Shown: positions 9,537-42,814 of the stretch, piece after piece
How positions within the stretch are numbered: the first letter of the stretch is position 1
How the letters are laid out: every line of letters begins with the position of its first letter
NCBI RefSeq assembly: GCF_002854065.1
Contig: NZ_CP024147.1
From: Escherichia coli
GTDB taxonomy: Bacteria; Pseudomonadota; Gammaproteobacteria; Enterobacterales; Enterobacteriaceae
Direction: 5' to 3' (one strand)
DNA length: 64,000 nt
Notes under the pieces: model-generated
Database searches by the model: none
What the model was told of the DNA's origin: nothing
Seen by the model: the letters and a program-made list of their open reading frames with translations, nothing else
Position numbers and translations under genes: made by a program

Positions 9537-9544
9537 AGTTTGCT

Positions 9545-17282: not shown

Positions 17283-17406
17283 AATAGTGCTTTTTACTAA
17301 GAGTTCTACTCCAGTTCCGGACTGCTCACACCACGGTATTAGGCATATCCTATATAGCCCCTGGTGAGAGTCACCAGTTTCTTGATTAAATAAAATGGAG
17401 TTTTAC

Positions 17407-17868
17407 ATGAAGGCTTTCAATAAGCTGTTTTCCCTCGTTGTTGCATCTGTTCTGGTTTTCTCTCTTGCTGGCTGCGGTGACAAAGAAGAATCGAAGAAAT
17501 TCAGCGCCAATCTGAACGGCACTGAAATTGCCATTACCTATGTCTACAAAGGTGACAAAGTGCTTAAGCAATCTTCTGAAACCAAAATTCAATTTGCCTC
17601 CATTGGTGCAACCACCAAAGAAGATGCTGCCAAGACACTTGAGCCGTTAAGCGCCAAATACAAAAACATCGCGGGTGTTGAAGAAAAATTAACCTATACC
17701 GATACCTACGCGCAGGAAAACGTGACTATCGATATGGAAAAAGTGGATTTTAAAGCCCTGCAGGGTATTTCAGGAATCAACGTTTCTGCTGAAGATGCCA
17801 AAAAAGGTATCACTATGGCGCAAATGGAACTGGTGATGAAAGCCGCTGGTTTTAAAGAAGTGAAATAA
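17407..17868 (+). CDS. yehR: Lipoprotein of unknown function (DUF1307 family)
   Basis: Translation MKAFNKLFSLVVASVLVFSLAGCGDKEE... with lipobox LAGC; 153 aa after start trimming. Confidence 0.85.
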   Translation: MKAFNKLFSLVVASVLVFSLAGCGDKEESKKFSANLNGTEIAITYVYKGDKVLKQSSETKIQFASIGATTKEDAAKTLEPLSAKYKNIAGVEEKLTYTDTYAQENVTIDMEKVDFKALQGISGINVSAEDAKKGITMAQMELVMKAAGFKEVK

Positions 17869-17908
17869 TCTGTCGGCGGCCATGTTTCGCATGGCCGCCA
17901 TACCCGTC

Positions 17909-18379
17909 TTAGCTTTTCTTCACATGCTGGCGCGCTGCCAGTCCACGCAGAAAATAACGTAAAAATTGATCGCCGCATTCGCGGAAGTTTTTATGATCCG
18001 GTGCGCGCATCATCGCTGTAATTTCCGGCATCGAAACGCGGAACTGCTGTTCGGTGAGGATAGCCAGAATGTCATCGGTTTTCAGCGAAAACGCGATGCG
18101 TAATTTTTTCAGCACGATGTTGTTATTAATGCGACGTTCCGGCTCCAGTGCCGGAGCAGACTCATCCTTGCCGCGTTTTTCATAAATCAGGCCATTGAGG
18201 AATGACGACAAAACAATGTCCGGACAACGCTGAAAACCCTCTTCGTCTTCTTTACGTAGCCAGACGGCGATCTGTTCCGCGGTGGCTTCGACATTACCCA
18301 GCGCCAGAATACGCACCAGGTCATTATTATTGGCTTTCAAAATGTAGCGCACGCTACGCAGAATATCGTTACTTAGCAT
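17909..18379 (-). CDS. yehS: DUF1456-family protein
   Basis: Translation MLSNDILRSVRYILKANNNDLVRILALGNVEATAEQIAVWLRKEDEEG...; 156 aa after start trimming. Confidence 0.8.
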   Translation of the reverse strand: MLSNDILRSVRYILKANNNDLVRILALGNVEATAEQIAVWLRKEDEEGFQRCPDIVLSSFLNGLIYEKRGKDESAPALEPERRINNNIVLKKLRIAFSLKTDDILAILTEQQFRVSMPEITAMMRAPDHKNFRECGDQFLRYFLRGLAARQHVKKS

Positions 18380-18425
18380 GAGGCCTTCAGGTGTTGATGA
18401 GGCAAAAAGCCATTTTAGCAGTCTT

Positions 18426-19145
18426 TTACAGGCCAATCGCCTCTTTTAAGCTTTTCAGATAACGGCGGCTGACCGGCACGGTTAAGCCATTACGCAAAAT
18501 CAACTCGGCCTGGCCGTTATCTTCCAGACGAATCTCCTGTAAATGCGCGAGGTTAACCAGATACTGACGATGGCAGCGCAGTAGTGGTGTACGACTTTCC
18601 AGGGTACGTAATGTCAATTCGGTAAAGCCCTCTTTCCCTTCGTGGCTGGTAACGTAGACACCGCTCATTCGACTGCTGACAAATGCCACATCTTTCATTT
18701 GCAGCAAATAAATCCGACTATGCCCCGTACAAGGGATAAATTTCAGCGCCTGTTGATTTTCCGGTAACAGCGAAACATCCTGCTTGCTGCGCTCCTGACG
18801 CAATCGCGCCAGCGTTTTCTCCAGCCGCGCTTCATCAATTGGCTTCAGCAGATAATCAAAGGCATGTTCTTCAAAGGCTTTAATAGCGTATTCGTCAAAC
18901 GCAGTGAGAAAAACAATATACGGCCGATGTTCCGGGTCAAGCATCCCCACCATTTCCAGACCACTGATGCGCGGCATCTGGATATCGAGAAACAGCACAT
19001 CCGGGCGCAGTTTATGCACCGCGCCGATCCCTTCCACGGCGTTTGAACACTCTCCAACGATTTCAATATCGCTCTGCTCCTGCAAAAATACACGCAGGTT
19101 CTCCCGTGCTAACGGTTCATCATCGACAATTAAGACTTTAATCAT
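18426..19145 (-). CDS. btsR: LytTR-family two-component response regulator
   Basis: Translation [23 protein letters not shown]... with receiver domain and LytTR DNA-binding domain; 239 aa. Confidence 0.9.
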
Positions 19146-20827
19146 GCCTCGTCCCTCCATGGTAGTCGTAACGTTATTCGGGTGTAACTATCAGGCTCAC
19201 AGGCGACGCTTGTTCCATAGTCATCGCCAAACCGTTCACGTAAACGCTTATCCACCAGATTCATCCCCAGCCCACTGGCATTGGTTACCGGTTGATACAA
19301 ACCGGCATTGTCTTCGATCTCCAGCATCAAATGTTGCCCCTCACGTCGGGCGCTGATTGCCACTCGCCCTGTATCCAGCAGTTGTGATGTCCCATGTTTA
19401 ATGGCGTTTTCCACTATCGGTTGCAGGGTAAACGCGGGCAATTGCTGCTGGGATAATTCTTGCGGAATAGCAATGTTGACCTGCAACCGCGACTGGAAGC
19501 GCGCCTTTTCAATTTGCAGATAAGCGTTCACATGTTCAATTTCGTCGGCGAGAGTAACAAACTCCGAAGGCCGCTTTAAGTTTTTGCGGAAAAAAGTGGA
19601 AAGATACTGCACCAGCTGGCTGGCCTGTTCGCTGTCGCGGCGGATCACCGCTTTAATGGTGTTAAGCGCATTAAACAAAAAATGAGGATTCACCTGGGCG
19701 TGAAGCAGTTTGATTTCTGACTGGGTGAGCATCGCTTTTTGCCGCTCATATTGCCCGGCAAGAATCTGCGCCGAAAGCAGTTGCGCAATCCCCTCGCCCA
19801 GCGTGCGGTTTATTGAACTGAATAAACGGTTTTTGGCTTCATACAATTTGATGGTGCCCATCACCCGCTGATTTTCACCACGCAACGGAATTACCAGCGT
19901 CGACCCCAGTTTGCATTGCGGATGCAAAGAGCAACGATAAGGTACTTCGTTGCCATCAGCGTAGACCACTTCACCGGTTTCAATCGCTTTTAAGGTGTAA
20001 GTCGAAGAAATCGGTTTGCCGGGTAAATGGTGGTCGTCACCAATTCCAGTAAAGGCCAGCAATTTCTCTCGATCGGTAATCGCGACTGCACCAATATCCA
20101 GCTCCTGATACAGCACCTGTGCCACTTTCATGCTGTTCACTTCGTTAAACCCCTGGCGCAAAATGCCTTCCGTCGAGGCTGCCACTTTCAGCGCAGTGGC
20201 AGAAAAAGCCGAAGTGTATTTTTCAAACATCGCGCGTTTATCGAGCAATATACGCATAAACAGCGCCGCGCCGACGGTATTGGTGACCATCATTGGCGCA
20301 GCAATATTACTCACCAGACGCACCGCATCTTCATAAGGTCGGGCGATCGCCAGGATGATCAACATTTGCACCATTTCAGCGACGAACGTGACGGCACCGG
20401 CGGTAATGGGGTTAAAGACTTTATCAGTGCGCCCGCGACGGATCAGGATGCTGTGTACCAGGCCGCCGAGCAATCCTTCAACGATGGTCGAGATCATGCA
20501 ACTTAGCGCGGTCATGCCCCCCATCGAATATCGATGTAACCCGCCGGTCAGGCCAACCAGCCCACCGACGACCGGACCGCCGAGTAAGCCGCCCATTACC
20601 GCGCCTATCGCACGGGTATTGGCAATAGAATCGTCAATGTGCAACCCAAACCAGGTGCCCATGATGCAGAAGATGGAAAAGACGATGTAGCAGAGAAATT
20701 TATGCGGCAGACGAACCGTGACCTGCATTAACGGTATGAATAATGGCGTTTTACTCATTAACCACGCAATGACTAAAAAAACGCACATCTGCTGAAGCAG
20801 CAGCAACACCAGATTAAAATCGTACAT
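19142..20827 (-). CDS. btsS: LytS-family sensor histidine kinase (pyruvate-sensing BtsS/YehU)
   Basis: Translation [30 protein letters not shown]... with 5TM-LytS N-terminus, GAF and His-kinase domains; 561 aa; 4-nt overlap with btsR. Confidence 0.9.
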
Positions 20828-21048
20828 ACCCGCAAACCACACTTCCCTTTAAAACGCGTAACATACATTGCCTGCGTTTAACTTTCTTTGAACTCTTGCA
20901 GAAAAATGAGAATTCGTGAGTACGATCACTCAAAATCGCCTGGCAAAAATAAAATCACCCTATAAATGCACAAAAAACGGGCAAAACTACCTGGTTCGCA
21001 AAACTGCGTCTAAAGTTAAACCGGGACCTCGCGAGCAAGGGTGAGACG

Positions 21049-21780
21049 ATGGCGCTTTACACAATTGGTGAAGTGGCGTTGCTTTGTGATATTAACCCTG
21101 TCACGTTACGCGCGTGGCAGAGGCGTTACGGATTGCTGAAACCGCAACGGACAGACGGCGGTCATCGGCTGTTCAACGATGCCGATATTGACCGGATCCG
21201 CGAGATCAAACGCTGGATCGACAACGGCGTGCAGGTCAGCAAAGTTAAAATGCTGCTCAGTAATGAAAATGTTGATGTGCAGAACGGCTGGCGCGATCAG
21301 CAAGAAACATTACTGACCTACCTGCAAAGCGGCAATCTGCATAGCCTGCGAACGTGGATCAAAGAGCGCGGTCAGGATTACCCCGCCCAGACACTCACCA
21401 CACATCTGTTTATTCCTCTGCGCCGACGGCTTCAGTGCCAACAACCGACTCTCCAGGCGCTGCTGGCGATCCTCGACGGCGTACTGATCAACTACATCGC
21501 CATTTGTCTGGCTTCGGCACGTAAAAAACAGGGTAAAGATGCGCTGGTGGTTGGCTGGAATATTCAGGATACCACCCGTCTGTGGCTGGAGGGCTGGATT
21601 GCCAGTCAACAAGGATGGCGCATTGATGTCCTCGCCCACTCGCTCAATCAACTACGCCCTGAACTGTTCGAAGGCCGTACATTGCTGGTGTGGTGCGGTG
21701 AAAATCGAACCTCCGCCCAACAGCAGCAACTCACCAGTTGGCAGGAACAAGTCCATGATATTTTCCCACTCGGCATTTAA
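21049..21780 (+). CDS. mlrA: MerR-family transcriptional regulator of csgD
   Basis: 243-aa ORF MALYTIGEVALLCDINPVTLRAWQRRYGLLKPQRTDGGHRLFNDADIDRIREIKRWIDNG... with MerR HTH. Confidence 0.9.
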   Translation: MALYTIGEVALLCDINPVTLRAWQRRYGLLKPQRTDGGHRLFNDADIDRIREIKRWIDNGVQVSKVKMLLSNENVDVQNGWRDQQETLLTYLQSGNLHSLRTWIKERGQDYPAQTLTTHLFIPLRRRLQCQQPTLQALLAILDGVLINYIAICLASARKKQGKDALVVGWNIQDTTRLWLEGWIASQQGWRIDVLAHSLNQLRPELFEGRTLLVWCGENRTSAQQQQLTSWQEQVHDIFPLGI

Positions 21781-21839
21781 TGATTCGTTAACAAATGCGC
21801 TTTACTGTACAATCCTTTCGTTAACATAAGGAGTGCATT

Positions 21840-21947
21840 ATGCGCATAGCTAAAATTGGGGTCATCGCCCTGTTCCTGTTTATGGCGTTAGGCGGAATTG
21901 GTGGCGTCATGCTCGCAGGTTATACCTTTATTTTGCGTGCTGGCTAA
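21840..21947 (+). CDS. yohO: Small membrane protein (35 aa)
   Basis: ATG at 21840 preceded by aaggag; translation [35 protein letters not shown] recognised as the small protein YohO; 3' end overlaps the convergent yehW stop. Confidence 0.75.
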
Positions 21948-22659
21948 GCGCCTGCACCAGCCTTTCAAACAGGCGGTCTGCGATGATCGCCGCCAGTGCC
22001 ACCAGTAACGCTCCCTGGATCACATACGCGGTATTAAATCCGCTAAGCCCGATGATGATGGGCGTACCCAGCGTGCTGGCCCCTACCGTTGAGGCGATCG
22101 TCGCCGTACCAATGTTGATAATCACCGAAGTTCGCACGCCCGCCAGAATCACCGGAGCCGCCAGCGGTAGCTCGACCTTACGCAGTCGCTGACCACGACT
22201 CATTCCCATACCCTTCGCAACTTCTGTCACGCTGGCATCAATCGCTCCCAGCCCGGCAAGTGTCGCCTGCAGGACGGGCAGCACGCCGTATAGGATCAAG
22301 GCGATAATCGCTGGTTGCAGACCAAAGCCGATCACCGGAACAGCAATCGCCAGCACCGCAACGGGCGGAAAAGTCTGCCCAACGGCGGCAATAGTTTCCA
22401 CCAGTGGGCGAAATTCCGCGCCCCACGGGCGAGTGACTGCAATTCCGGCACCAGTACCAATGATCACCGCAAACAGACTCGAAATTCCCACCAGCCAGAA
22501 ATGAGCCAGTGCCAGAGCTGCAAAACTTTCTTGCTGATAAACGGGTCGTGGCAGTTGTGGGAACAAGGCAGCAAACAGCGGCTGGCTGTAAGGCAGCCAG
22601 AAAATCAGTGCCGCAAACAAAGCAATGAGCCAGAACAGCGGATCGCGCAACATCTTCAT
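21928..22659 (-). CDS. yehW: ABC transporter permease (glycine betaine/osmoprotectant uptake system)
   Basis: 243-aa polytopic ORF with ABC permease EAA-like loop (...[24 protein letters not shown]...). Confidence 0.85.
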
Positions 22660-22663
22660 ACGC

Positions 22664-23590
22664 TTACGCCTCCACCAGCAGATCCTGAAAATGCAGCGTG
22701 CCGCAAGGCTGGCCCTGCGTGTTCACCACCGGCAGCACCTCGCATCCCCGCGCGACAAACAGAGAGAGCGCATCGCGTAGCGTCATCTCTTCTGCCAGTG
22801 CCTCACCTTCTGCTCGTTCTTCGCGACGCACGTAATCCGCCACACTACGTAACGAAAGCAGGCGCACACCCAGTTCACTACGTCCAAAAAAATGGCGGAC
22901 AAAATCATTCGCCGGACGAGTCAGCATCGTCAGCGGATTGCCCTGCTGCACCACTTCACCGTGATCCATCAATACCAGATGTTCTGCCAGCCGTAGCGCC
23001 TCATCAATATCATGAGTGACCAGCACAATAGTGCGCCCCAGCAAACGGTGAATGCGCGTCATCTCTTGTTGCAACGCGCCGCGCGTTACCGGGTCCAGTG
23101 CGCCAAAAGGTTCATCCATCAGTAAGACTTGCGGATCGGCAGCCAGTGCACGGGCCACTCCCACACGTTGCTGCTGACCACCGGAAAGCTGATGCGGATA
23201 ACGCTCACGCAAATTTGACTCCAGCCCCAGTAGCGCCATTAATTCGTCGATACGATCGTCAATCCGTGCCCGCGACCATTTTTGTAATTGCGGCACGGTA
23301 GCGATGTTTTGCGCCACGCTCCAGTGGGGGAACAGGCCAATAGATTGAATGGCATAGCCCATCCGGCGGCGCAACTCCAGTACTGGCAGCGAGCGAATTT
23401 CTTCTCCGGCAAAGCGGATCTCTCCGCTGTCATGCTCCACCAGGCGGTTAATCATTTTCAGGGTGGTGGATTTACCGGAGCCAGATGTGCCAATCAGCAC
23501 CGAAAAACTCCCTTCCTGAAAATTGAGATTGAGATCGTTAACGGCTTTTTGTGCGCCAAACAGTTTGCTGACATGGCTAAATTCAATCAT
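22664..23590 (-). CDS. yehX: ABC transporter ATP-binding protein
   Basis: 308-aa ORF with Walker [10 protein letters not shown], signature LSGGQQQRV and Walker [12 protein letters not shown]. Confidence 0.9.
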
Positions 23591-24740
23591 TACGTTTCAC
23601 CTTCAACAGTGCGATAAGTAAATCGAACAGCGCATCGATCAGCACCGCCAGAACAATTACCGGGATCACCCCCAGCAACACTAAATCAATGGCGCTGCTT
23701 AGCAGCCCCTGGAAAACCAGCGCACCAAAACCGCCTGCGCCGATTAACGCCGCAATCACCGCCATGCCTACAGTTTGCACCATCACCACCCGCAGGCTGC
23801 GCAGAAATACCGGTAACGCCAGCGGTAACTGAACATGCAGGAATCGCTGCGCCCCGCTCATGCCCATCGCTCTGGCGCTCTCCAGCACATCGCGCGGGAT
23901 CTGGTTCAAGCCGACTACCACGCCACGCACCAGCGGCAGCAAGGCATAGAGCACCAGCGCAATCAGTGCGGGTGTCATTCCGGTTCCTGCTATGCCAAGC
24001 TTCCCCAGCCACGGAAAGGCCGTAACCAGTCCGGCAAGCGGCGCAATCAGCAGGCCAAAGAGCGCCACCGAAGGCACGGTCTGAATGACATTGAGCAGAG
24101 AAAAAATCGCCCCCTGCCGCGCGGTGGAAAAGTAGCACCAGATGCCCAACGGCACACCAATCACTAACGCAGGCAGCACCGCACCAAACAGCAACGTCAG
24201 ATGTTGTGCCAGCGCGTCGTCAAACACATCCTGACGGTTGGCGTATTCTTTCATTAGTGAGAGATCGTTAAGCGTGCCGGAGTACAGCAACCACAGCGGA
24301 ATAATGGCAATCTGCATATGCAACAACCAGCGCCACAGCGGATGCGTGGAGATTCGGCGGATGGCATCGCTACAGGCCAGCAATGCCAGCGCCGCAGCCA
24401 GCCAGAAACCACTGCCGAGGCTGGTACGCGCCAGCGAACTGCCATTTTGCGCCAGTTGGGTCGCCGCCTTTCCAGCTCCCCACACCAGCAATACGAAGAC
24501 GAATTGCGCCAGAATGAGTGCAAAAATGCTGCCTTTTTTAGCGGGAATAAAACAGGCTGTCAGCCAGGCGCAACCAACGCCCACCAGCATCCAGATCGTT
24601 TGCGGCCACAGCTGCCAGAGATGTCGCCCTTCACCCGAGACTAAACGATTAGGCGCGTAGCTGATAAACGGCAGCGCTGCTGCGATTGCCGTCAGCAACA
24701 GCAGCAGCGCCAGAACAGGATTAATACGTAGATAAGTCAC
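23583..24740 (-). CDS. yehY: ABC transporter permease
   Basis: 385-aa polytopic ORF with permease motif (...[24 protein letters not shown]...). Confidence 0.85.
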
Positions 24741-24746
24741 GGGAAA

Positions 24747-25664
24747 TTACTTCGTCCACCCTTTTTGTTTCAGGTAGTCGGCAGCCACTTTTTTGGCATC
24801 CAGTCCTTCCACTGCAATGCTGGCATTCAGTTGCTGCAATGTTTTTGCATCGAGGCTGGCGAAGACTGGCTGTAGCCACTGTGCCATTTGCGGATACTCT
24901 TTCAGCACCGACTCACGCACCACTGGTGCTGGCGCGTAGATAGGTTGCACGCCTTGCGGATCGCTTAAGGTTTGCAGCCCCAGCGCCGCGACTGGACCGT
25001 CAGTGCCGTAAGCCATTGCGGCATTAACGCCAGAAGTTTGCTGGGCAGCGGCTTTAATCGTCACCGCCGTGTCGCCACCAGCCAGTGACAGCAACTGATC
25101 CTGACCGAGCTTAAAGCCATAGGCTTTTTCAAACACGGGTAAGGCATCGGCGCGTTCGATAAACTCTGCCGAGGCTGCCAGTTTGAAGGTGCCGCCCTCT
25201 TTCAGATAACGACTCAGGTCAGCAAGCGAAGTGAGTTTGTTTTTCTCTGCCACATCCTGACGCACGGCGATGGTCCAGGTGTTATTTGCAGGTGCGGGCG
25301 TCAGCCAGATTAACTTGTTTTGCTCTGCATCGAGTTTTTTGACTTTCTCGTAACCTTGCTGCGCGTTTTTCCACGCTGCATCGTTTTCATCTTTAAAGAA
25401 AAACGCGCCATTGCCGGTATATTCCGGATAGATATCCAGTTCACCGGAAGTAATCGCCCCGCGCACCACAGGAGTCGTTCCGAGTTGCACTTTATTGACC
25501 GTCGGTACGCCGTGGCTTTCCAGTACCTGCAAAATGATATTGCCGAGCAGCGCGCCTTCAGTATCGATTTTTGAACCGACTTTAACGGGAGAAGCTGCCT
25601 GTAGCGGCAGGCTCACGGCTGCCAACATAACCAGTGAACCTGCCCAGACCTTTGAGAGTGGCAT
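24747..25664 (-). CDS. osmF: Periplasmic glycine betaine-binding protein
   Basis: 305-aa ORF with signal peptide MPLSKVWAGSLVMLAAVSLPLQAASP; first gene of the osmF-yehYXW operon. Confidence 0.85.
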   Translation of the reverse strand: MPLSKVWAGSLVMLAAVSLPLQAASPVKVGSKIDTEGALLGNIILQVLESHGVPTVNKVQLGTTPVVRGAITSGELDIYPEYTGNGAFFFKDENDAAWKNAQQGYEKVKKLDAEQNKLIWLTPAPANNTWTIAVRQDVAEKNKLTSLADLSRYLKEGGTFKLAASAEFIERADALPVFEKAYGFKLGQDQLLSLAGGDTAVTIKAAAQQTSGVNAAMAYGTDGPVAALGLQTLSDPQGVQPIYAPAPVVRESVLKEYPQMAQWLQPVFASLDAKTLQQLNASIAVEGLDAKKVAADYLKQKGWTK

Positions 25665-25805
25665 GATGCTTTCCTCATTCTTTTACTGTTGTTTTCAGCG
25701 AATTAAGAGAAAAGCATAGTTGATAATGGCGGGGTTAGCCTGAGCGGACGGATTCAGTTGCAGAATCAGATAAATACTTAAGAGGCATATTCGGTCCGGC
25801 GTTTC

Positions 25806-25841
25806 CTGCCGGATGCGGCGCGAGCGCCTTATCCGGCCTAC
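25806..25841. repeat. REP element in osmF-bglX intergenic region
   Basis: cctgccggatgcggcgcgagcgccttatccggcctac matches the REP family motif. Confidence 0.7.
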
Positions 25842-25915
25842 AAAGGGCGAAAATTCAGCAAGTTAAGATATGAACATCAGGCAAAGGGCGCAAACGTCGC
25901 GCCCTTACTAAAGCA

Positions 25916-28213
25916 TTACAGCAACTCAAACTCGCCTTTCTTAACGCGTGCGGAATCAGTGCCGATAAAGACATTGAACTTGCCAGGCTCGGCGTCATAT
26001 TTCATCTGTTGATTCCAGAACTTCAGCGCCTCGATATCAATCGGGAAGCTGACGGTCTGAGTTTCGCCCGGCTTCAGCGTGATTTTCTCAAAGCCTTTAA
26101 GCTGCTTCACCGGACGACTCATGGAAGCCGTCACATCCTGCAAATACATCTGAATCACCGTGGCCCCCTCGCGCTTACCGGTGTTCGTCACCTGCACGCT
26201 GGCGGTCACTTTGCCGTCACGCTTCATGGTCGGCGCAGAAAGTTTCACATCAGAGACGGTGAAAGTGGTATAGCTCAGCCCATAGCCGAACGGATAAAGC
26301 GCCCCGTTAGCTTCATCAAAATAACGCGAAGTGTATTTGTTCGGCTTATCGGCATTATACGGACGCCCGGTATTCAGATGGCTGTAGTACACCGGGATCT
26401 GCCCGACAGAACGCGGAAAGGACATCGGCAGCTTGCCGGACGGGTTGTAATCGCCAAACAATACATCGGCAATCGCATTACCGCCTTCAGTCCCGGCAAA
26501 CCAGGTTTCCAGAATCGCATCAGCTTGCTGATCTTCTTTCACCAGCGCCAGCGGACGCCCGTTCATCAGCACCAGCACCAGCGGTTTGCCGGTGGCTTTC
26601 AGGGCGGCAATCAAATCACGCTGGCTTTGCGGAATAGTGATATCGGTACGGCTGGAGGCTTCGTGCGCCATCCCCTGGGCTTCACCGACCACAGCCACCA
26701 CCACATCAGACTGTTTCGCCGTCTGCACCGCTTCATCAATCATCTCTTGCGGCGAGCGCGGATCGACTTTGACCGCTTCTTCATACTGATTCAGGAAATC
26801 GATAATGCCTTTGTCACTGGTAACGTTCGCCCCTTTGGCATACAGCACTTTACCGTTTTCACCGACGGCATTTTTAATCCCTGTTAGCACAGTAACAGAT
26901 TGATCGGCGACACCGGCTGCGGACCAGCTGCCCATCACGTCACGTTTACTGTCCGCCAGTGGCCCAACCACCGCAATGGTGGCCGATTTTTTCAGCGGTA
27001 ACGTTTCGAGACGGTTTTTCAGCAACACCAGGCTTTCACGCGCCACTTCACGCGCTTCTTTACGGTGCAGGCGGCTTTCGGCATTGGTATCCATCGGGTC
27101 AGACTCTTTCGGACCGAGATGGCTGTATGGGTCGTTAAACAACCCCATATCATATTTAACGTTCAGTACATGGCGGGCAGCATCGTCCAGCTCTGCCATC
27201 GTCACTTTGCCGGATTTGATCAACCCAGGCAGATACTTCGAGTAGTACTCGTCGCTCATGCTCATGTTGATTCCGGATTTCAGCGCCACGCGCACCGCAT
27301 CTTCCGGGTCTGCCGCCGTGCCATGTTTAATCAGTTCTTTGATTGCACCATGATCGGAAACGGTGATGCCTTTAAAGCCCCACTGGTCGCGCAGAACATC
27401 TTTCAGCAGCCAGGAGTCGGAGGTGGCTGGCGTGCCGTTGAGTGAGTTCAGCGCCACCATTACCGCACCGCTGCCTGCGTCCAGCCCCGCTTTGTACGGC
27501 GGCATATAATCATTAAACAGGCGCTGCGGACTCATATCGACGGTGTTGTACTCTTTACCGCCTTCTACCGCACCGTATGCGGCAAAGTGTTTGACGCTGG
27601 TCATCACCGAGTAGCGATCTGCCGGGCTTTTACCCTGCATCGCTTCCACCATGGTTTTACCCATTATTGAGGTGAGATACGTATCTTCGCCAAAACCTTC
27701 GGAAGCACGTCCCCAGCGCGGATCGCGCGAGACATCGACCATCGGTGCCCAGGTCATATTCAGGCCATCATCTGCCGCTTCATAAGCAGAGACACGTCCG
27801 ACCGTTTTCACTGCATCGAGGTTAAAAGACGAGGCCAGACTGAGGCTAATCGGGAACACCGTGCGCTGACCGTGCAGCACGTCGTAAGCAAAGAAAAGAG
27901 GAATTTTCAGGCGGCTTAATTCCATCACCTGATCCTGCATGGCGCGGATATCCTGACGGGTTACGGTGTTGAAAATCGCCCCAACCTGACCGTCTTTGAT
28001 CATCTCGCGGATCGCCTCTTTCGGGTTATCCGGGCCGACGCTGATTAAGCGCAGCTGACCAATTTTCTCATCAACTGTCATTTTCTTAAGCAGTTCGGTG
28101 ACGAACGCATCCCGCGCTTCAGGCGTTAATGGATGGTTACCGAATAAATCATCCGCCAGTGCTGGCTGCAGGGCCAGACTCACCGCGATTCCTACTGAAC
28201 ATAGCCATTTCAT
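25916..28213 (-). CDS. bglX: Periplasmic beta-glucosidase (GH3)
   Basis: Translation MKWLCSVGIAVSLALQPALADDLFGNHPLTPEAR...; 765 aa after trimming the 789-aa ORF. Confidence 0.9.
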   Translation of the reverse strand: MKWLCSVGIAVSLALQPALADDLFGNHPLTPEARDAFVTELLKKMTVDEKIGQLRLISVGPDNPKEAIREMIKDGQVGAIFNTVTRQDIRAMQDQVMELSRLKIPLFFAYDVLHGQRTVFPISLSLASSFNLDAVKTVGRVSAYEAADDGLNMTWAPMVDVSRDPRWGRASEGFGEDTYLTSIMGKTMVEAMQGKSPADRYSVMTSVKHFAAYGAVEGGKEYNTVDMSPQRLFNDYMPPYKAGLDAGSGAVMVALNSLNGTPATSDSWLLKDVLRDQWGFKGITVSDHGAIKELIKHGTAADPEDAVRVALKSGINMSMSDEYYSKYLPGLIKSGKVTMAELDDAARHVLNVKYDMGLFNDPYSHLGPKESDPMDTNAESRLHRKEAREVARESLVLLKNRLETLPLKKSATIAVVGPLADSKRDVMGSWSAAGVADQSVTVLTGIKNAVGENGKVLYAKGANVTSDKGIIDFLNQYEEAVKVDPRSPQEMIDEAVQTAKQSDVVVAVVGEAQGMAHEASSRTDITIPQSQRDLIAALKATGKPLVLVLMNGRPLALVKEDQQADAILETWFAGTEGGNAIADVLFGDYNPSGKLPMSFPRSVGQIPVYYSHLNTGRPYNADKPNKYTSRYFDEANGALYPFGYGLSYTTFTVSDVKLSAPTMKRDGKVTASVQVTNTGKREGATVIQMYLQDVTASMSRPVKQLKGFEKITLKPGETQTVSFPIDIEALKFWNQQMKYDAEPGKFNVFIGTDSARVKKGEFELL

Positions 28214-28408
28214 ATGGATTTTTCTTCCTTTGTTGCCCGACGTGGCAGCGAAAATGGTGCAAAAACCGTAGTTTGCCATAAGCATGATGGAGAGAGAAAA
28301 AGAATGCTCAGTTTATTGTCTGAATTTTCAAAATATTCACTCGCTGAATTGTCATACAAGGCGCTATTCTAGTTTGTGATATTTTTTCGCCACCACAAGG
28401 AGTGGAAA

Positions 28409-30124
28409 ATGTCTTCCATGACAACAACTGATAATAAAGCCTTTTTGAATGAACTTGCCCGTCTGGTCGGTCATTCACACCTGCTCACCGATCCCGCAAA
28501 AACGGCCCGCTATCGCAAGGGCTTCCGTTCTGGTCAGGGCGACGCGCTGGCTGTCGTTTTCCCTGGCTCACTACTGGAATTGTGGCGGGTGCTGAAAGCC
28601 TGCGTCACCGCCGACAAAATTATTCTGATGCAGGCTGCCAATACAGGCCTGACCGAAGGATCGACGCCAAACGGTAACGATTATGATCGCGATATCGTGA
28701 TCATCAGCACCCTGCGTCTCGACAAGCTGCACGTTCTCGGCAAGGGCGAACAGGTGCTGGCCTATCCGGGCACCACGCTTTATTCGCTGGAAAAAGCCCT
28801 CAAACCGCTGGGACGCGAACCGCACTCGGTGATTGGATCATCGTGCATTGGCGCATCGGTTATCGGCGGTATCTGTAATAACTCTGGTGGTTCGCTGGTG
28901 CAGCGTGGCCCGGCGTATACCGAAATGTCGTTATTCGCGCGTATAAATGAAGATGGCAAACTGACGCTGGTGAACCATCTGGGGATTGATCTGGGCGAAA
29001 CGCCGGAGCAGATCCTTAGCAAGCTGGATGACGATCGCATCAAAGATGACGATGTGCGTCACGATGGTCGTCACGCCCACGATTATGACTATGTCCACCG
29101 CGTTCGTGATATTGAAGCCGACACGCCCGCACGTTATAACGCCGATCCGGATCGGTTATTTGAATCTTCTGGTTGCGCCGGGAAGCTGGCCGTCTTTGCA
29201 GTACGTCTTGATACCTTCGAAGCGGAAAAAAATCAGCAGGTGTTTTATATCGGCACCAACCAGCCGGAAGTGCTGACCGAAATCCGCCGTCATATTCTGG
29301 CTAACTTCGAAAATCTGCCGGTTGCCGGGGAATATATGCACCGGGATATCTACGATATTGCGGAAAAATACGGCAAAGACACCTTCCTGATGATTGATAA
29401 GTTAGGCACCGATAAGATGCCGTTCTTCTTTAATCTCAAGGGACGCACCGATGCGATGCTGGAGAAAGTGAAATTCTTCCGTCCGCATTTTACTGACCGT
29501 GCGATGCAAAAATTCGGTCACCTGTTCCCCAGCCATTTACCGCCGCGCATGAAAAAATGGCGCGATAAATACGAGCATCATCTGCTGTTAAAAATGGCGG
29601 GCGATGGCGTGGGCGAAGCCAAATCGTGGCTGGTGGATTATTTCAAACAGGCCGAAGGCGATTTCTTTGTCTGTACGCCGGAGGAAGGCAGCAAAGCGTT
29701 TTTACACCGTTTCGCCGCTGCGGGCGCAGCAATTCGTTATCAGGCGGTGCATTCCGATGAAGTCGAAGACATTCTGGCGCTGGATATCGCTCTGCGGCGT
29801 AACGACACCGAGTGGTATGAGCATTTACCGCCGGAGATCGACAGCCAGCTGGTGCACAAGCTCTATTACGGCCATTTTATGTGCTATGTCTTCCATCAGG
29901 ATTACATCGTTAAAAAAGGCGTGGATGTGCATGCGTTGAAAGAACAGATGCTGGAGCTGCTACAGCAGCGCGGCGCGCAATACCCTGCCGAACATAACGT
30001 CGGTCATTTGTATAAAGCACCGGAGACGTTGCAGAAGTTTTATCGCGAGAACGATCCGACCAACAGTATGAATCCGGGGATCGGTAAAACCAGTAAGCGG
30101 AAAAACTGGCAGGAAGTGGAGTAA
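28409..30124 (+). CDS. dld: FAD-dependent D-lactate dehydrogenase (membrane-associated)
   Basis: Translation MSSMTTTDNKAFLNELARLVGHSHLLTDPAKTARYRKGFRSGQGDALAVVFPGSLLELWR...; 571 aa after start trimming. Confidence 0.9.
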   Translation: MSSMTTTDNKAFLNELARLVGHSHLLTDPAKTARYRKGFRSGQGDALAVVFPGSLLELWRVLKACVTADKIILMQAANTGLTEGSTPNGNDYDRDIVIISTLRLDKLHVLGKGEQVLAYPGTTLYSLEKALKPLGREPHSVIGSSCIGASVIGGICNNSGGSLVQRGPAYTEMSLFARINEDGKLTLVNHLGIDLGETPEQILSKLDDDRIKDDDVRHDGRHAHDYDYVHRVRDIEADTPARYNADPDRLFESSGCAGKLAVFAVRLDTFEAEKNQQVFYIGTNQPEVLTEIRRHILANFENLPVAGEYMHRDIYDIAEKYGKDTFLMIDKLGTDKMPFFFNLKGRTDAMLEKVKFFRPHFTDRAMQKFGHLFPSHLPPRMKKWRDKYEHHLLLKMAGDGVGEAKSWLVDYFKQAEGDFFVCTPEEGSKAFLHRFAAAGAAIRYQAVHSDEVEDILALDIALRRNDTEWYEHLPPEIDSQLVHKLYYGHFMCYVFHQDYIVKKGVDVHALKEQMLELLQQRGAQYPAEHNVGHLYKAPETLQKFYRENDPTNSMNPGIGKTSKRKNWQEVE

Positions 30125-30160
30125 AAATTACGGATGGCAGAGTATCGCCATCCGTAATTC
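30124..30160. terminator. Bidirectional stem-loop between convergent dld and pbpG
   Basis: ttacggatggcagagtatcgccatccgtaa inverted repeat flanked by A-run upstream. Confidence 0.55.
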
Positions 30161-30162
30161 AC

Positions 30163-31095
30163 TTAATCGTTCTGTGCCGTCTGCCCCGCCGCCGCCATTT
30201 GGGCGGCTTTTTGTTTTTTATAGCTCAACGCTGCTGCCGGAACAGGCATCACTTTACCGGTTTCAATCCAGGTTCGCAGGCGGCTGGCATCGGCAAAATG
30301 GGTATATTTGCCAAACGCATCCATCACTACCAGCGCCACCGGTTTATTATTGATAACCGTACGCATCACCAGACAATGGCCCGCCGCATTGGTAAAGCCG
30401 GTTTTGGTTAGCTGGATATTCCAGTTATCGCGATACACCAGATGATTAGTATTGCGGAACGGCAGCGTATACGTCGGGTTAGAGAAGGTTGCCATATCTT
30501 CCCGGGTGGTACTTAACTGCCCGATCAACGGATATTGTTTGCTGGCAATGAGCAGTTTGGTTAAGTCACGGGCGGTTGAAACGTTATGCACCGACAATCC
30601 GGTCGGTTCAACAAAGCGCGTGTTGTTCATTCCGAGCGATTTCGCTTTCGCATTCATCGCCTTAATAAAGGCTTTGTAACCACCGGGATAATGGTGCGCA
30701 AGGCTTGCCGCCGCGCGGTTTTCTGAAGACATCAACGCCAGCAACAGCATATCTTTACGGCTGATTTCGCTGTTCAGTCGTACGCGCGAATAGACCCCTT
30801 TCATCTCCGGCGTCTGGCTGATATCCACTTTTAGTTTTTCATCCAGCGGCAGTCGTGCATCCAGCACGACCATCGCAGTCATTAATTTGCTGATAGACGC
30901 AATCGGACGCACCAGATCCGGGTGGTTCGAATAGATCACTTTGTTGGTATTCAGATCAACAATCATCGCGCTACCGGAGGCAATTTCCGGTTGTGAAGCG
31001 GTGGTAGCGGCTGCCGTTTTCGCAACGGCCTGCGGTGCAAAAGGCACAGCCAGCATCAGGGTCAGGCTAAATAAAGAAACTCGAAATTTCGGCAT
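30163..31095 (-). CDS. pbpG: D-alanyl-D-alanine endopeptidase (PBP7)
   Basis: Translation [11 protein letters not shown]... with SISK active-site motif ([11 protein letters not shown]); 310 aa after start trimming. Confidence 0.9.
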
Positions 31096-31268
31096 GATGA
31101 GCATTCAGATAGTGGTTCACGCGCACGGGTTGCGCACCGCCGGAGTAAGGATTTACTGAGGCTAGCGACGCCATCATAACGAGCAAAAAGTGCGATCGTC
31201 AAAGGAGAATCGTGAGGAAATGCTGCATTGCTGACATTTACGCCAGCAATGCAACGTCAAAGAACTTT

Positions 31269-31856
31269 CTAGAACAAACGATAACCGTAGCCCCATAGTA
31301 TAACGGTAAGGGCGAGCAGCACTTCCAGTACCAGCACGCCAATCGCCAGCGTCGAACTGGAGAAGCTAAGGCCTTCCTCTTTGTTGATATTCAGGAAGCT
31401 CGGAATACCAAGGTAAAGCAGGTAACCGGTGTAAAACAGTGCCACCGTGCCGACCAGCGCACACAACCAGACCAGCGGATAAAGCGCCACCAGACCGCTT
31501 AAAAACAGCGGAGTTGCAACGTAGCCCGCGAAGACCATGCAGTGCGCAAGTGACGGACGCTGCGGGTAATTGCGCGCCATCCACCAGATGACCCGCCCCA
31601 TCACCGCAACCCCAGCCAGCATAACGCCGTAAAACAAGACAGCCAGCGCCAGTCCGGTAAACCAGGATAACTTCAGGATAGTGCCATCGCCAAAATTCCA
31701 GCCAATCTGTGTAGTGCCAATGAAGGCGCAAATCACCGGAATCGCCGCCATCAGCAAAACGTGGTGGGTGTAATGGTGAGAAATCGTTTCGTTTTCGCGA
31801 TTAATCACCTGCATTTCACGATCGGGATGGGAAAACAGTCCCCAGACATGGCTCAT
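31269..31856 (-). CDS. yohC: Inner membrane protein (Yip1 family)
   Basis: Translation MSHVWGLFSHPDREMQVINRENETISHHY...; 195 aa, multiple TM segments. Confidence 0.8.
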   Translation of the reverse strand: MSHVWGLFSHPDREMQVINRENETISHHYTHHVLLMAAIPVICAFIGTTQIGWNFGDGTILKLSWFTGLALAVLFYGVMLAGVAVMGRVIWWMARNYPQRPSLAHCMVFAGYVATPLFLSGLVALYPLVWLCALVGTVALFYTGYLLYLGIPSFLNINKEEGLSFSSSTLAIGVLVLEVLLALTVILWGYGYRLF

Positions 31857-32025
31857 ACCGCCCCCTTGTTGTGAGTTCATGAACCTGACAGTTCAAGTAT
31901 AAGTCAGCTTGTGATTATTTTTTGTTCGCCCATGTAATTTGCACCGTCTGATGTACGTCCTTTTTCAGCGTGAATGATTCACAGGGTGTATGCTTACAGG
32001 CAACCAAAGGGAGACAGACTGGCCT

Positions 32026-32604
32026 ATGGATCTCAATACACTCATCTCACAATATGGTTATGCCGCGCTGGTGATCGGTAGCCTGGCGGAAGGTGAAACC
32101 GTGACTTTGCTGGGAGGCGTTGCGGCGCATCAGGGGCTATTAAAGTTCCCGCTGGTGGTACTTTCTGTGGCGCTTGGCGGCATGATTGGCGACCAGGTGC
32201 TTTATCTGTGCGGGCGGCGGTTTGGCGGCAAGCTGTTACGCCGTTTCTCGAAACATCAGGATAAAATTGAGCGGGCGCAGAAACTTATCCAACGCCATCC
32301 GTATCTGTTTGTCATTGGTACGCGCTTTATGTATGGCTTTCGGGTGATTGGCCCGACGCTGATTGGTGCCAGCCAGCTGCCGCCGAAAATCTTTCTGCCG
32401 CTTAATATTCTCGGCGCATTTGCCTGGGCGTTGATTTTTACCACTATCGGTTACGCTGGTGGTCAGGTGATTGCGCCGTGGTTGCACAATCTCGATCAGC
32501 ATTTGAAGCACTGGGTCTGGTTGATTCTGGTCGTGGTTCTGGTGGTAGGCGTGCGCTGGTGGCTGAAACGACGCGGGAAGAAAAAGCCGGATAATCAGGC
32601 GTAA
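32026..32604 (+). CDS. yohD: DedA-family inner membrane protein
   Basis: Translation MDLNTLISQYGYAALVIGSLAEGETVTLLGG...; 192 aa. Confidence 0.8.
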   Translation: MDLNTLISQYGYAALVIGSLAEGETVTLLGGVAAHQGLLKFPLVVLSVALGGMIGDQVLYLCGRRFGGKLLRRFSKHQDKIERAQKLIQRHPYLFVIGTRFMYGFRVIGPTLIGASQLPPKIFLPLNILGAFAWALIFTTIGYAGGQVIAPWLHNLDQHLKHWVWLILVVVLVVGVRWWLKRRGKKKPDNQA

Positions 32605-32611
32605 AACCATT

Positions 32612-32693
32612 GCCCTGGATAAGGCGTTCGCGCCGCATCCGACATCCGGGGCACCATGCCTGATGCGACGCTTGTGCGTCTTATCATGCCTAC
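32612..32693. repeat. BIME-like pair of REP elements in yohD-yohF intergenic region
   Basis: ggataaggcgttcgcgccgcatccgaca and gcctgatgcgacgcttgtgcgtcttatcatgcctac are REP-family palindromes in opposite orientation. Confidence 0.65.
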
Positions 32694-32733
32694 CAAAATT
32701 TTACCCATTGAAATAACCACGCACCTCACTGCG

Positions 32734-33495
32734 CTATTCTGGGTTGAACTGCGGATTCGCCAACATAAAGCCGCCATCCACTATCAACGACTGCCCGGTG
32801 GTGTAATTTGCGCCCTCTGAGCACAGCCACGCTACCAGGCTGGCAATCTCATGCGTTGCGCCAAAACGCCGCAGAGGAATCGAAGGCTCCGCGTCGGGCT
32901 TCACGTCGCTGTCATCCATGCCATTCATTGGCGTGGCGATCGCCCCAGGCGCGACTGCGTTCACCAAAATCTTATGCCTGACCAGCTCCAGCGCCATCGC
33001 TTTGGTTAACCCACCGAGCGCATGTTTAGCGGCTGTGTAGGCGCTGGCATCCGGCAGCGGCGTATGTTCATGTACCGACGTAATGTTGATGATGCGACCG
33101 CCCTGCCCTTGTTTCACCATCTGGCGGGCCGCAATTTGTGAGCATAAAAATGCACCATCGACATCAACGGTAAAAATCTTGCGCCACTCATCGAAAGCCA
33201 TATCAAGAAACGGCGCTTTGGTCATTGCGCCCGCATTATTCACCAGCACATCAATACGCCCCAGCCGTTGAATGAGTTTCTCCAGCGCCTGCGCACCTTC
33301 TGGCAGTTTACCGAGATCCAGCTGCACAATCTCCGCACGTACGCCGTGGCTAACTACCTCACGCGCGGTATCTTTTGCCCCTTCTTCATCTGAGTGCCAG
33401 GTAATGCCAATATCAAACCCTTGCTGCGCCAGTAATAACGCGCACTCTTTGCCGATCCCCGAATCGGAGGCGGTAATAATCGCTACCTGTGCCAT
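32734..33495 (-). CDS. yohF: Short-chain dehydrogenase/reductase
   Basis: Translation MAQVAIITASDSGIGKECALLLAQQGFDIGITW... with SDR Rossmann motif and YxxxK; 253 aa. Confidence 0.85.
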   Translation of the reverse strand: MAQVAIITASDSGIGKECALLLAQQGFDIGITWHSDEEGAKDTAREVVSHGVRAEIVQLDLGKLPEGAQALEKLIQRLGRIDVLVNNAGAMTKAPFLDMAFDEWRKIFTVDVDGAFLCSQIAARQMVKQGQGGRIINITSVHEHTPLPDASAYTAAKHALGGLTKAMALELVRHKILVNAVAPGAIATPMNGMDDSDVKPDAEPSIPLRRFGATHEIASLVAWLCSEGANYTTGQSLIVDGGFMLANPQFNPE

Positions 33496-33547
33496 CGAGT
33501 TCTCCACTTAACGCTGAATAAACGTTAAGTATAGAAGTCACATATCA

Positions 33548-34984
33548 TCAGCGTTTGTAACCCCCGCCCAACGCACCAGTGAGTTGAATGGAGGCATCCA
33601 GCCACTGCCCTTGCAATAACAGGCCATTGGCCCGCTCACGCAGCGCGGGGATTCTGGCTTCGCTGACGCGGGAACCAGCAATGATGCCCGCGTTAAAGCG
33701 GGCCTGCGCAAGACCTACCACACGCAAGGCATCGCGCTCAATTTGCGCCTGATGCTGGTTTTTCTCCGCCAGTGTCTGAACCTGACTGGCTGCCCGCGCC
33801 ACGTCATTCACCGCTTCAACCACCGCTTTGTTGTAGCTGGCGATAGACAAGTTGCTTTCGGCTTTTGCGATATCGAGGTTGGCGTTAAGACGACCACTAT
33901 CGAAAATGGGTAGCGTCAGGCCTGCCGTAACGCCCATTTGCTGCGCGGAATGACGGAACAGATCGCTTAAGTGCAACGCATCCTGTTGCAGGAAGGCCAT
34001 CAGGTTGATGTCAGGATAAAATGCCGCTTTTGCCGCATCAATGGTGCTTAGCGATGACTCAACGTACCAGTGCGCCGCCTGCAAATCTGCCCGCCGGGCC
34101 AGTAAGGAGTACCCCAGTTCATCAGGAAGCTGGCTTGCCACTTTCGGCAACGCGACCGGTTTAAGCTTCAATGACTTTGTCTGGTGATTTGTAAGTGCGC
34201 TTAACCGTGCCTCAATAATTTTCATTTTCCCCGCGACATCGTTGAGCTGCTGCCGGGTTTTGCTGGCATTAATATCGGTTTCCACACCTTCAACTGAAGA
34301 AGTAATCCCGTTCTGATATAGCTGACGATCGGTCGCGATAATGGTGTTCTGCTCTTTTTCTATTTGCTGCAAGACCGTGTTTAACGCCGCCTGGGTTTGC
34401 CACTCCCAGTACAGGCGGGCTACGCTGCCAGCCAGCAATTGGCGGGTTTGCTCGCGTTCCGCCGCCCGTGCTTTAACCGTACCCAGGCGGGCAGTAACCT
34501 CCGCCCGATTCTTTCCCCAGATATCGAGATGCCAGCCCGCCGTTAAGCCAAAAGTTCCGTTGGTGTACCACGGACCGGTCGTACCTGCGGCCGGATCGTT
34601 CAGAGCAAACGGCCCCATTAGCCCTTCTGCCGACATTTTTTGCCGCTCCATATCCGCAGAAAAGTCGATCTGCGGACCATCCTGAGTGGCAATTGCCTTC
34701 GCCTGGGCTTCAGCTAGCTGAATGCGCTGTTCAGCCACCTGCATATCCGGTGCGTTCTGTAGTGCATTGTTAATTAATGAAGTGAGTTGATTATCGTGAT
34801 ACTCCAGCCACCATTGGCTGTCTGGCCAACCATTTTTCAGCGCCGTGGGTAATGCGGTGTCAACTTGTGCAGCGGGCGTTTGCTGGCTTAACGCCTGGCG
34901 GGTTTCATGCATAGGCGCACACCCGGTCAGCATCAGTAACAGCGGAAAACAGGCGATGGCTGGATAAAAGGAATCACGATTCAT
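33548..34984 (-). CDS. mdtQ: Outer-membrane efflux lipoprotein (NodT/OMF family); reading frame intact here
   Basis: Translation MNRDSFYPAIACFPLLLMLTGCAPMH... (lipobox LTGC); single uninterrupted 478-codon frame after start trimming. Confidence 0.8.
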   Translation of the reverse strand: MNRDSFYPAIACFPLLLMLTGCAPMHETRQALSQQTPAAQVDTALPTALKNGWPDSQWWLEYHDNQLTSLINNALQNAPDMQVAEQRIQLAEAQAKAIATQDGPQIDFSADMERQKMSAEGLMGPFALNDPAAGTTGPWYTNGTFGLTAGWHLDIWGKNRAEVTARLGTVKARAAEREQTRQLLAGSVARLYWEWQTQAALNTVLQQIEKEQNTIIATDRQLYQNGITSSVEGVETDINASKTRQQLNDVAGKMKIIEARLSALTNHQTKSLKLKPVALPKVASQLPDELGYSLLARRADLQAAHWYVESSLSTIDAAKAAFYPDINLMAFLQQDALHLSDLFRHSAQQMGVTAGLTLPIFDSGRLNANLDIAKAESNLSIASYNKAVVEAVNDVARAASQVQTLAEKNQHQAQIERDALRVVGLAQARFNAGIIAGSRVSEARIPALRERANGLLLQGQWLDASIQLTGALGGGYKR

Positions 34985-35207
34985 GGGGGAATAATCAGGT
35001 AAGAAAAGGTGCGCGGAGATTACCGTGTGTTGCGATATATTTTTTAGTTTCGCGTGGCAATACATCAGTAGCAATAAAACGACATATCCAGAAAAATATA
35101 CACTAAGTGAATGATATCTTCCGATTTATCTTAATCGTTTATGGATAACGGCAAAGGGCTTCGTTTTTTCCTATACTTATTCAGCACTCACAAATAAAGG
35201 AACGCCA

Positions 35208-35291
35208 ATGAAAATTATACTCTGGGCTGTATTGATTATTTTCCTGATTGGGCTACTGGTGGTGACTGGCGTATTTAAGATGATATTTTAA
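35208..35291 (+). CDS. yohP: Small membrane protein (27 aa)
   Basis: ATG at 35208 preceded by aaagg; translation MKIILWAVLIIFLIGLLVVTGVFKMIF* recognised as YohP. Confidence 0.75.
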   Translation: MKIILWAVLIIFLIGLLVVTGVFKMIF

Positions 35292-35359
35292 AAATCAGAT
35301 ATGACATATAAGTTGTCAGGTCAGGAACTAGATATTTTGTGTACTTGATTTGCAAACAG

Positions 35360-35620
35360 CTCCGGTGTTGGTGGCGTCAAAATCGCTGAAGCGTTCCCCG
35401 AAGGCCGGGGCAGCCCACATGGATGTGGGCTGAGGGCGCGTCTTACAAGGACGTTTCCTCGCGCCCGACCCGGTAGCCGAAGGGGATAAGCTGAAGGTAC
35501 CGCGCAGCGGCGATTTTGTTCGCCAGAGCCCGGGGGTGCAGGGGGAGGAGGCGATTGTCCTCCCCCTGCGCGCTCCTTGCGCCAGTGGCAATATGTGGCT
35601 TAGCTCATGAAAGGAGCGCA
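35360..35620. other. GC-rich, hairpin-rich intergenic element of unassigned function between yohP and dusC
   Basis: Perfect inverted repeats cagcccacat/atgtgggctg (35411-35432), gcagggggagga/tcctccccctgc (35538-35569) and gcgctcctt/aaggagcgc (35570-35578 / 35611-35619); composition unlike flanking DNA. Confidence 0.4.
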
Positions 35621-35678
35621 ACAAGATGATGAAGCTGAATAAGCGATTCATTGTCTCTGATAAACTGCGATTCCACTA

Positions 35679-36629
35679 TTATCGCAGCTTATCGATATCA
35701 ATTGCCTGAATAGCCCTTGCAATATCATGGGAATTATTCAACACCCGAACATGCTGAAATAATTCCGTTGCTTCATCGTATTCTTTACGCAAATAACCCA
35801 ACCACTGTTTAATCCGCGCTACGTGATATAACCCGGTATCGCCCTGCTTTTCCAGACGGGTATATTTTTGCAGCAAAGCAACCACCTCCGGCCACGGCAT
35901 TCGCGGTTCGTTATATTTTACCACCCGGCTCAGGTTGGGAATATTGAGCGCCCCGCGACCAATCATCACTGCGTCGCAGCCGCTGATCGCCATGCATTGT
36001 TGCGCACTCTGCCAGTCCCAGATTTCACCGTTGGCAATCACCGGAATATTCAGCCGCTGGCGAATATCGCCAATCGCCTGCCAGTCAATATGCTCCGCGC
36101 GGTAACCCTGCTCTTTTGTCCGCCCATGCACCACCAGCTCCGTAGCGCCAGCCTGTTGAACCGCATCGGCGATTTCAAATTTCTTCTCACCGCTGTCCCA
36201 GCCCAGACGCACTTTCACGCTGACGGGCAAATGCGCCGGTACAGCTTCACGCATCGCTTTTGCCCCCTGGTAGATGAGTTCAGGATCTTTGAGTAACGTC
36301 GCGCCGCCGCCGCTACCGTTAACCGTTTTTGACGGGCAGCCGCAATTGAGATCCACGCCCCAGGAACCTAACTCCACCGCACGGGCGGCGTTCTCTGCCA
36401 ACCATTGCGGGAACTGGCCTAACAACTGCACGCGCACCAGCGTACCGGATGGTGTCCGGCTGGCGTTTTGTAGCTCAGGGCAAATGCGATGAAAGACTTT
36501 TACCGGCAGCAGTTGATCCACCACGCGGACGAACTCGGAGATGCACAGATCGTAGTCGTTAACTTCGGTCAGCAATTCACGCACCAGAGAGTCAAGCACT
36601 CCCTCCATCGGTGCCAGTAACACACGCAT
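35679..36629 (-). CDS. dusC: tRNA-dihydrouridine synthase C
   Basis: Translation [37 protein letters not shown]...; start trimmed from the 338-aa ORF. Confidence 0.9.
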
Positions 36630-36831
36630 ATCATCACCCGCAAAAAAATGAGGCGCTATGTTAGCGCCTATGGTCAGCGGATTAAAGGTCTGCAAAGAGG
36701 GATTGCTGCAAACTGCAATCCCTCTCTATGCTTGATGTATGCCTGAGTTCGCTGCTCATTGCGTAATACCGGGGAGCGAAAAAATAAGCGCTGATTTCTT
36801 AATGTGATCGGTAGCACGTTTTACGAATTAA

Positions 36832-42751: not shown

Positions 42752-42802
42752 GACGCATCCGGCATTTGGCACCGATTGCCGGATGCAGCGCATCCGGCAA
42801 TA
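42752..42802. repeat. REP elements between preA and mglC
   Basis: gacgcatccggcatttggcaccgattgccggatgcagcgcatccggcaata contains REP-type palindromes. Confidence 0.65.
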
Positions 42803-42814
42803 TCCGCAATCACA

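Follow-up and report, generated by a model that had tools for sequence, protein, structure and literature searches.

The mdtQ locus

This study concerns mdtQ (also called yohG), which is read from the minus strand of a 64,000-nt stretch of an Escherichia coli genome (NCBI RefSeq assembly GCF_002854065.1, contig NZ_CP024147.1); this whole stretch, at its full length, is referred to below as the window. The gene is one of four outer-membrane-factor (TolC-like) genes of E. coli. It lies in the order yohD / yohF-mdtQ / yohP / dusC, which is the same in K-12 (MG1655 and W3110), in REL606, and in all other genomes examined; the window is collinear with K-12 across the locus, and mdtQ occupies the orthologous position between yohF and yohP/dusC. 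Features within the gene are as follows.

33548..34984, minus strand: mdtQ (yohG) coding sequence, intact (list of open reading frames, full-length NF008524 match, and annotation in a near-identical genome)
34922..34984, minus strand: predicted lipoprotein signal peptide, residues 1-21 (MNRDSFYPAIACFPLLLMLTG), ending in the lipobox (read from the sequence)
34919..34930, minus strand: lipobox L-T-G-C, residues 19-22 (read from the sequence)
34833..34837, minus strand: run of five adenines (A5) at gene nucleotides 148-152, codons 50-51 (AAA AAT), which is A4 in K-12 (pairwise alignment)

The original prediction, made from the letters of the window and their open reading frames, described a single uninterrupted frame of 478 codons, and this is what is present: 478 codons plus a stop codon, 1437 nt in all, run without interruption from an ATG at 34984. 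The longest version of the same frame begins at a TTG at 35074, extends to 33548 on the minus strand, and would encode 508 amino acids. We rejected this start, although it is used by some depositors, because the NF008524 equivalog profile begins at the ATG; moreover, with 30 additional residues at the N-terminus, the signal peptide would be buried. A frame of 478 codons that matches an equivalog model from end to end cannot credibly be put down to chance.

The N-terminus of the encoded protein (MNRDSFYPAIACFPLLLMLTGCAP) fits the lipobox pattern [LVI][ASTVI][GAS]C, with Arg3 and a hydrophobic stretch preceding LTGC and Ala23 at the +2 position. By the lipobox rule, Cys22 is the predicted lipidated N-terminus after cleavage, and by the Lol-sorting rules, Ala23 at +2, in place of an Asp that would signal inner-membrane retention, predicts sorting to the outer membrane. 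The lipobox codon 20 (34925..34927) is polymorphic (T20A), with Thr in three of the eight alleles compared and Ala in five. LTGC is found in the window, SY3626, and FDAARGOS_1280, and LAGC in K-12, an O157:H7 isolate, MS6198, and others; both forms fit the lipobox consensus.

Family assignment

The window protein matches NF008524, the NCBIfam equivalog for MdtQ, with 1023.3 bits against a cut-off of 650, and residues 1-478 align to profile positions 1-478 of 478. It also matches TIGR01845, the NodT outer-membrane subunit subfamily (274.7 bits; cut-off 210.05), and Pfam OEP (PF02321; 106 bits), the latter over two stretches that correspond to two tandem repeats. In the same profile search, the models for MdtP, AdeK, CusC-type proteins, and TolC all scored under their cut-offs. 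Among proteins of solved structure, the best sequence relative in the PDB is VceC (1yc9; E 1.5e-39, residues 51-477), followed by OprM, CmeC, CusC/SilC, OprN, MtrE, and OprJ. An AlphaFold2 model built from the single sequence had a mean pLDDT (predicted local distance difference test score) of 43 and was discarded; the family is settled by the profile and PDB sequence matches. The earlier description of an outer-membrane-factor lipoprotein with a signal peptide and an LTGC lipobox is thus upheld by the NF008524 and TIGR01845 matches and by LTGC at residues 19-22, with lipidation itself remaining a prediction.

A single-base deletion in K-12

The original prediction also stated that K-12 MG1655 carries mdtQ as a pseudogene, and this was correct. 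In MG1655 (NC_000913.3), b2139 is typed as "pseudogene" (2227323..2228758, 1436 bp), and the RefSeq annotation of W3110-P marks mdtQ as "frameshifted"; the K-12 reference does not contain the intact 478-codon frame. Pairwise alignment of the window gene with b2139, the check that had been proposed for locating the frameshift, gave 13 substitutions and one indel at 99.0% nucleotide identity. At the indel, K-12 has GCTGAAAATGG and the window GCTGAAAAATGG: one A of the A5 run at codons 50-51 is missing from K-12. No other difference between the two sequences breaks the frame. With A5 and a length of 1437 bp, the window gene differs on both counts from the K-12-type pseudogene (A4, 1436 bp).

In K-12, the original frame stops after 69 residues; in the +2 frame, the remainder can be read without interruption up to the stop codon shared with the window gene. 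Restoring the missing A gives a K-12 protein with only three differences from that of the window (T20A, I98V, and H267N). Ahead of its stop, the frameshifted b2139 retains the signal peptide, the lipobox, and a further 47 residues, and a 69-residue pre-lipoprotein fragment could be made in K-12.

Distribution of the intact gene

mdtQ is present in 5420 of 5426 complete E. coli genomes, always on the chromosome, and at least 80% of the gene is covered in 5390 of them. To count the K-12 deletion, we used as query the exact 76-nt MG1655 stretch centered on it, such that a match of at least 99% over the 76-mer is a perfect match; 355 of 5403 records matched at this level. The matches listed are laboratory K-12 stocks or their derivatives: MG1655, W3110, C600, DH1, DH5alpha, J53, EMG2, WG1, XL1-Blue, ER strains, and O16:H48 strains from mouse-gut experiments. 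In the other records that were sampled, O157:H7 EDL933 and CFT073 among them, the match extends over 77 nt, corresponding to A5. When 40 evenly spaced records were taken from the mdtQ matches, 36 spanned 1437 bp, three were of the K-12 type (1436 bp), and one was truncated. Overall, about 90% of sequenced E. coli carry an intact mdtQ, a figure that is approximate as regards other, rarer disruptions because it does not come from translation of all ~5400 copies.

Individual genomes agree with this picture. The REL606 (E. coli B) gene is 1437 bp long and annotated as intact (WP_001078139.1), as are the copies in one O157:H7 isolate, in four divergent isolates, and in SY3626. Strain 100416, from human stool in the Gambia (NZ_CM128593.1), is 99.962% identical to the window, gap-free, over positions 1..36689, and its mdtQ is annotated as intact (WP_202794524.1). 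Public collections already contain the exact 478-amino-acid sequence of the window protein under the name MdtQ, from at least 1000 contigs, within a 90%-identity cluster of 11,156 members. In E. albertii, the ortholog has its full length and shares 94% identity, and therefore the intact state is ancestral and the K-12 state derived. A 2025 review described mdtQ as conserved in the core genome despite its pseudogene label, encoded on its own, and of unknown function (PMC11762307). Intact mdtQ is thus the species norm and K-12 the exception, and the allele is already known, annotated, and discussed in the literature.

These counts bear on the suggestion in the original prediction that the strain would be a better background for identifying the partner pump of MdtQ. 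The suggestion holds relative to K-12, for which the strain is a suitable substitute, but the strain is no better than almost any other non-K-12 E. coli, the widely used laboratory B lineage included: it is not distinctive, because only 355 of the 5403 records carry the K-12 deletion, while REL606, the O157:H7 isolate, and others are annotated as intact and CFT073 has A5.

Selection and independent losses

We compared seven intact mdtQ alleles and the repaired K-12 allele (n = 8) by pairwise Nei-Gojobori estimates of the ratio of nonsynonymous to synonymous substitution (dN/dS). The ratio was 0.03-0.17 in 27 pairs, with dS values of up to 0.11; one near-identical pair had no synonymous differences. 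mdtQ is clearly under purifying selection. The repaired K-12 allele was no outlier (dN/dS 0.05-0.12) and fits a recent, lineage-specific frameshift.

The gene has been lost independently elsewhere. In STEC379 (NZ_CP091024.1), an IS1A element stands where the 5' 60% of mdtQ should be (2248..3573 of the extracted region), and only 576 bp at the 3' end remain, under the annotation "TolC family protein, missing N-terminus." Premature stops in mdtQ have also been reported in some Salmonella Typhi and Paratyphi A isolates (PMC9241588).

Expression signals and neighboring genes

The features that flank mdtQ are as follows.

34985..35207, no strand: divergent mdtQ-yohP intergenic region, 223 nt (from the sequence)
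32734..33495, minus strand: yohF (SDR oxidoreductase), 52 nt downstream of mdtQ on the same strand
35208..35291, plus strand: yohP, a 27-amino-acid small membrane protein and divergent neighbor (translation MKIILWAVLIIFLIGLLVVTGVFKMIF)

The mdtQ promoter presumably lies within 34985..35207. A promoter consensus scan of this spacer returned nothing above shuffle expectation, no Shine-Dalgarno-like purine run precedes the mdtQ start (…CCTGATTATTCCCCC ATG), and an Rfam scan of 33000..36000 gave nothing informative; according to the review, the mdtQ promoter is without experimental confirmation (PMC11762307). Downstream, a consensus scan found no terminator-like site on the minus strand between mdtQ and yohF, and because the two genes are also on the same strand and separated by a gap of only 52 nt, yohF is possibly cotranscribed with mdtQ. 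The yohP translation agrees in position and length with the annotated yohP (WP_000691708.1) of a near-identical genome.

Between yohP and dusC, approximately 380 nt upstream of the mdtQ start, lies a GC-rich element of 272 bp (35368..35639). It corresponds to K-12 2229376..2229106 in inverted orientation at 88.6% identity and is a known TRIP1c repeat (PMC10888264). The inverted element was considered as an unusual regulatory change and rejected, since it is a TRIP1c repeat found in the same arrangement in 1998 of the 5426 complete genomes; both orientations of the repeat at the mdtQ locus are common.

Proposed function and alternative explanations

The locus is, very probably, an ordinary and functional-looking allele of mdtQ that encodes an outer-membrane-factor channel and that was lost in K-12 by the deletion of one A. 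By homology, MdtQ would be exported by the Sec pathway, lipidated at Cys22, cleaved by signal peptidase II, and, given Ala at +2, sorted by the Lol pathway to the outer membrane. There, three protomers would come together into a channel that combines a beta-barrel pore with a long alpha-helical tunnel in the periplasm. A recent report lists MdtQ among the N-terminally acylated TolC homologs of E. coli (2026 preprint). The trimer is expected to act as an exit duct, docked to a periplasmic adaptor and an inner-membrane transporter. MdtQ has been described as an orphan with no known partner pump (PMC11762307), and neither a pump nor an adaptor is encoded in the 64-kb window; given this orphan status, both partners are likely to be encoded elsewhere in the genome. 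An efflux role is suggested by family membership, and the mdtQ-null phenotypes cited in the literature are limited to small susceptibility shifts, for puromycin, acriflavine, and tetraphenylarsonium (PMC11762307). K-12 lost the protein when a slippage-type deletion removed one A of the five at codons 50-51, so that no more than the 69-residue fragment is left.

Other explanations need to be weighed against this one. Because the lesion falls in a homopolymer run, where such errors arise, the difference from K-12 might be an artefact of sequencing or assembly that affects one of the two sequences, be it the K-12 reference or the window. However, the identical A4 recurs in all 355 records, including MG1655, W3110, DH1, DH5alpha, C600, EMG2, and WG1; approximately 5000 other records are one base longer across the 76-mer, as A5 predicts; and few platforms are error-prone on a run as short as five. 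The artefact explanation is effectively refuted, and we assign it a negligible probability. It is also conceivable that mdtQ is intact but cryptic, with no effective promoter or ribosome-binding site, in which case the K-12 frameshift would have been cost-free. This would accord with the ATG that lacks a preceding Shine-Dalgarno-like sequence, with a spacer to yohP in which no promoter-like site rises above shuffle expectation and for which no promoter has been confirmed experimentally, and with the fact that K-12, like some other lineages, can do without the gene. Simple consensus scans, however, miss activator-dependent and alternative-sigma promoters, and a gene that was never expressed would not show dN/dS as low as 0.03-0.17 when its alleles have diverged at up to 10% of synonymous sites, together with a full-length ortholog in E. 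albertii. For these reasons, we consider it unlikely that mdtQ is cryptic.

Appreciably more plausible, though still short of an even chance, is that MdtQ is a real channel whose task is not multidrug efflux but the export of an endogenous metabolite, metal, peptide, or toxin, possibly with a partner that is not an RND pump. "Multidrug resistance" would then be a historical label for a protein whose function is described as not elucidated. The modest size of the cited susceptibility shifts is compatible with such a role, as are the lack of a pump adjacent to mdtQ and the fact that the closest paralogue, MdtP (356 bits), is encoded in an operon whose pump is of the MFS type and not an RND pump. 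This possibility would refine, rather than contradict, the reading of the locus as a functional-looking channel gene. More tentatively still, the combination of purifying selection, core-genome presence, and K-12-specific loss allows that wild-type E. coli may have in MdtQ a selected, TolC-independent exit duct, the partner pump and substrates of which may have been systematically missed because almost all efflux genetics has used K-12, in which mdtQ is dead. If so, any efflux or export that persists in tolC mutants of natural isolates would rely on MdtQ, and this would not be specific to the window strain.

Implications for work on MdtQ

K-12 and all of its derivatives, including BW25113 and the Keio collection, DH5alpha, and W3110, are natural mdtQ nulls, a fact that has been overlooked in some papers; for example, mdtQ is given as "not affected" in a paper on the genome of a tolC strain that derives from K-12. 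Work on the partners and substrates of MdtQ needs either a non-K-12 strain or K-12 with the single A repaired. The window strain is usable for this, as are REL606 and about 90% of sequenced isolates. The drug phenotypes of the mdtQ (yohG) null reportedly go back to Sulavik et al. 2001; if those mutants were K-12, the phenotype would need another explanation, given the pseudogene, for example a polar effect on yohF or an effect on the 69-residue lipoprotein fragment. Current knowledge of mdtQ is unchanged by the window allele, which serves as a practical reminder that K-12 is the odd one out.

Other features of the window

Two IS1 copies (11760..12531 and 16016..16787; 772 bp aligned, 99.87% identical) flank apbC(mrp)-metG in direct orientation. 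Both are annotated as IS1B in a near-identical genome, and the pair resembles a composite transposon that encloses an essential gene for a tRNA ligase. The right-hand copy (16016..16787) stands in place of ~14.2 kb of K-12 and REL606 sequence (MG1655 2196405..2210607) that comprises yehF, yehH, yehI, yehK, yehL, yehM, yehP, and most of yehQ, of which only a 3' remnant is left ("SWIM zinc finger family protein, missing N-terminus"). The sequence comparison suggests that the MoxR/VWA-type yeh cluster was removed by an IS1-mediated deletion. The left-hand copy adjoins a truncated fimbrial gene (together ~11615..12531), with rcnB-rcnA-rcnR directly after, and most of the yehABCDE chaperone-usher fimbrial region, whose yehD and yehE are neighbors of mrp in K-12, therefore appears to have been deleted from the window. 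In the preA-mglC intergenic region, MG1655 (2236542..2236732) is ~190 bp longer than the window (42786..42804), a difference that is probably a repeat element.

Comparison with known systems

The nearest comparison is with MdtQ (YohG) of other E. coli (O157:H7, UniProt Q8X659; REL606, WP_001078139.1), which is the same gene, with the same yohF-mdtQ-yohP-dusC synteny and the same length of 478 amino acids. The window protein differs from the allele of the O157:H7 isolate at four residues, none of them a difference of substance. The window allele has LTGC, with Thr at the -2 position of the lipobox, where LAGC is found elsewhere, but Thr also occurs in other isolates, and no functional consequence of this difference is known. 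K-12 MG1655 b2139 is the orthologous locus with the same flanking genes, but with its frame ending after residue 69, K-12 is left without the channel domain.

By profile score, the closest paralogue in E. coli is MdtP (YjcP), encoded in the mdtNOP operon; the window protein reaches 356 bits against its model, NF007390, and because this is below the equivalog cut-off of 597, the protein is not MdtP. MdtP is likewise a lipoprotein of unknown physiological role, but it is encoded together with an adaptor and a pump, whereas MdtQ is an orphan (PMC11762307). VceC (1yc9), OprM (1wp1), CmeC (4mt4), and CusC (3pik) are homologous to MdtQ over residues ~51-477, nearly all of the mature protein (E 1.5e-39 to 3e-21), and OprM and CusC carry an N-terminal lipid (2026 preprint). 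Sequence identity between MdtQ and these solved outer-membrane factors is low, and all of them have known partner pumps; MdtQ itself has no determined structure (PMC11762307). TolC of E. coli, in turn, is not lipidated (2026 preprint), is only ~12% identical to MdtQ (PMC11762307), and is the major partner of the E. coli pumps.
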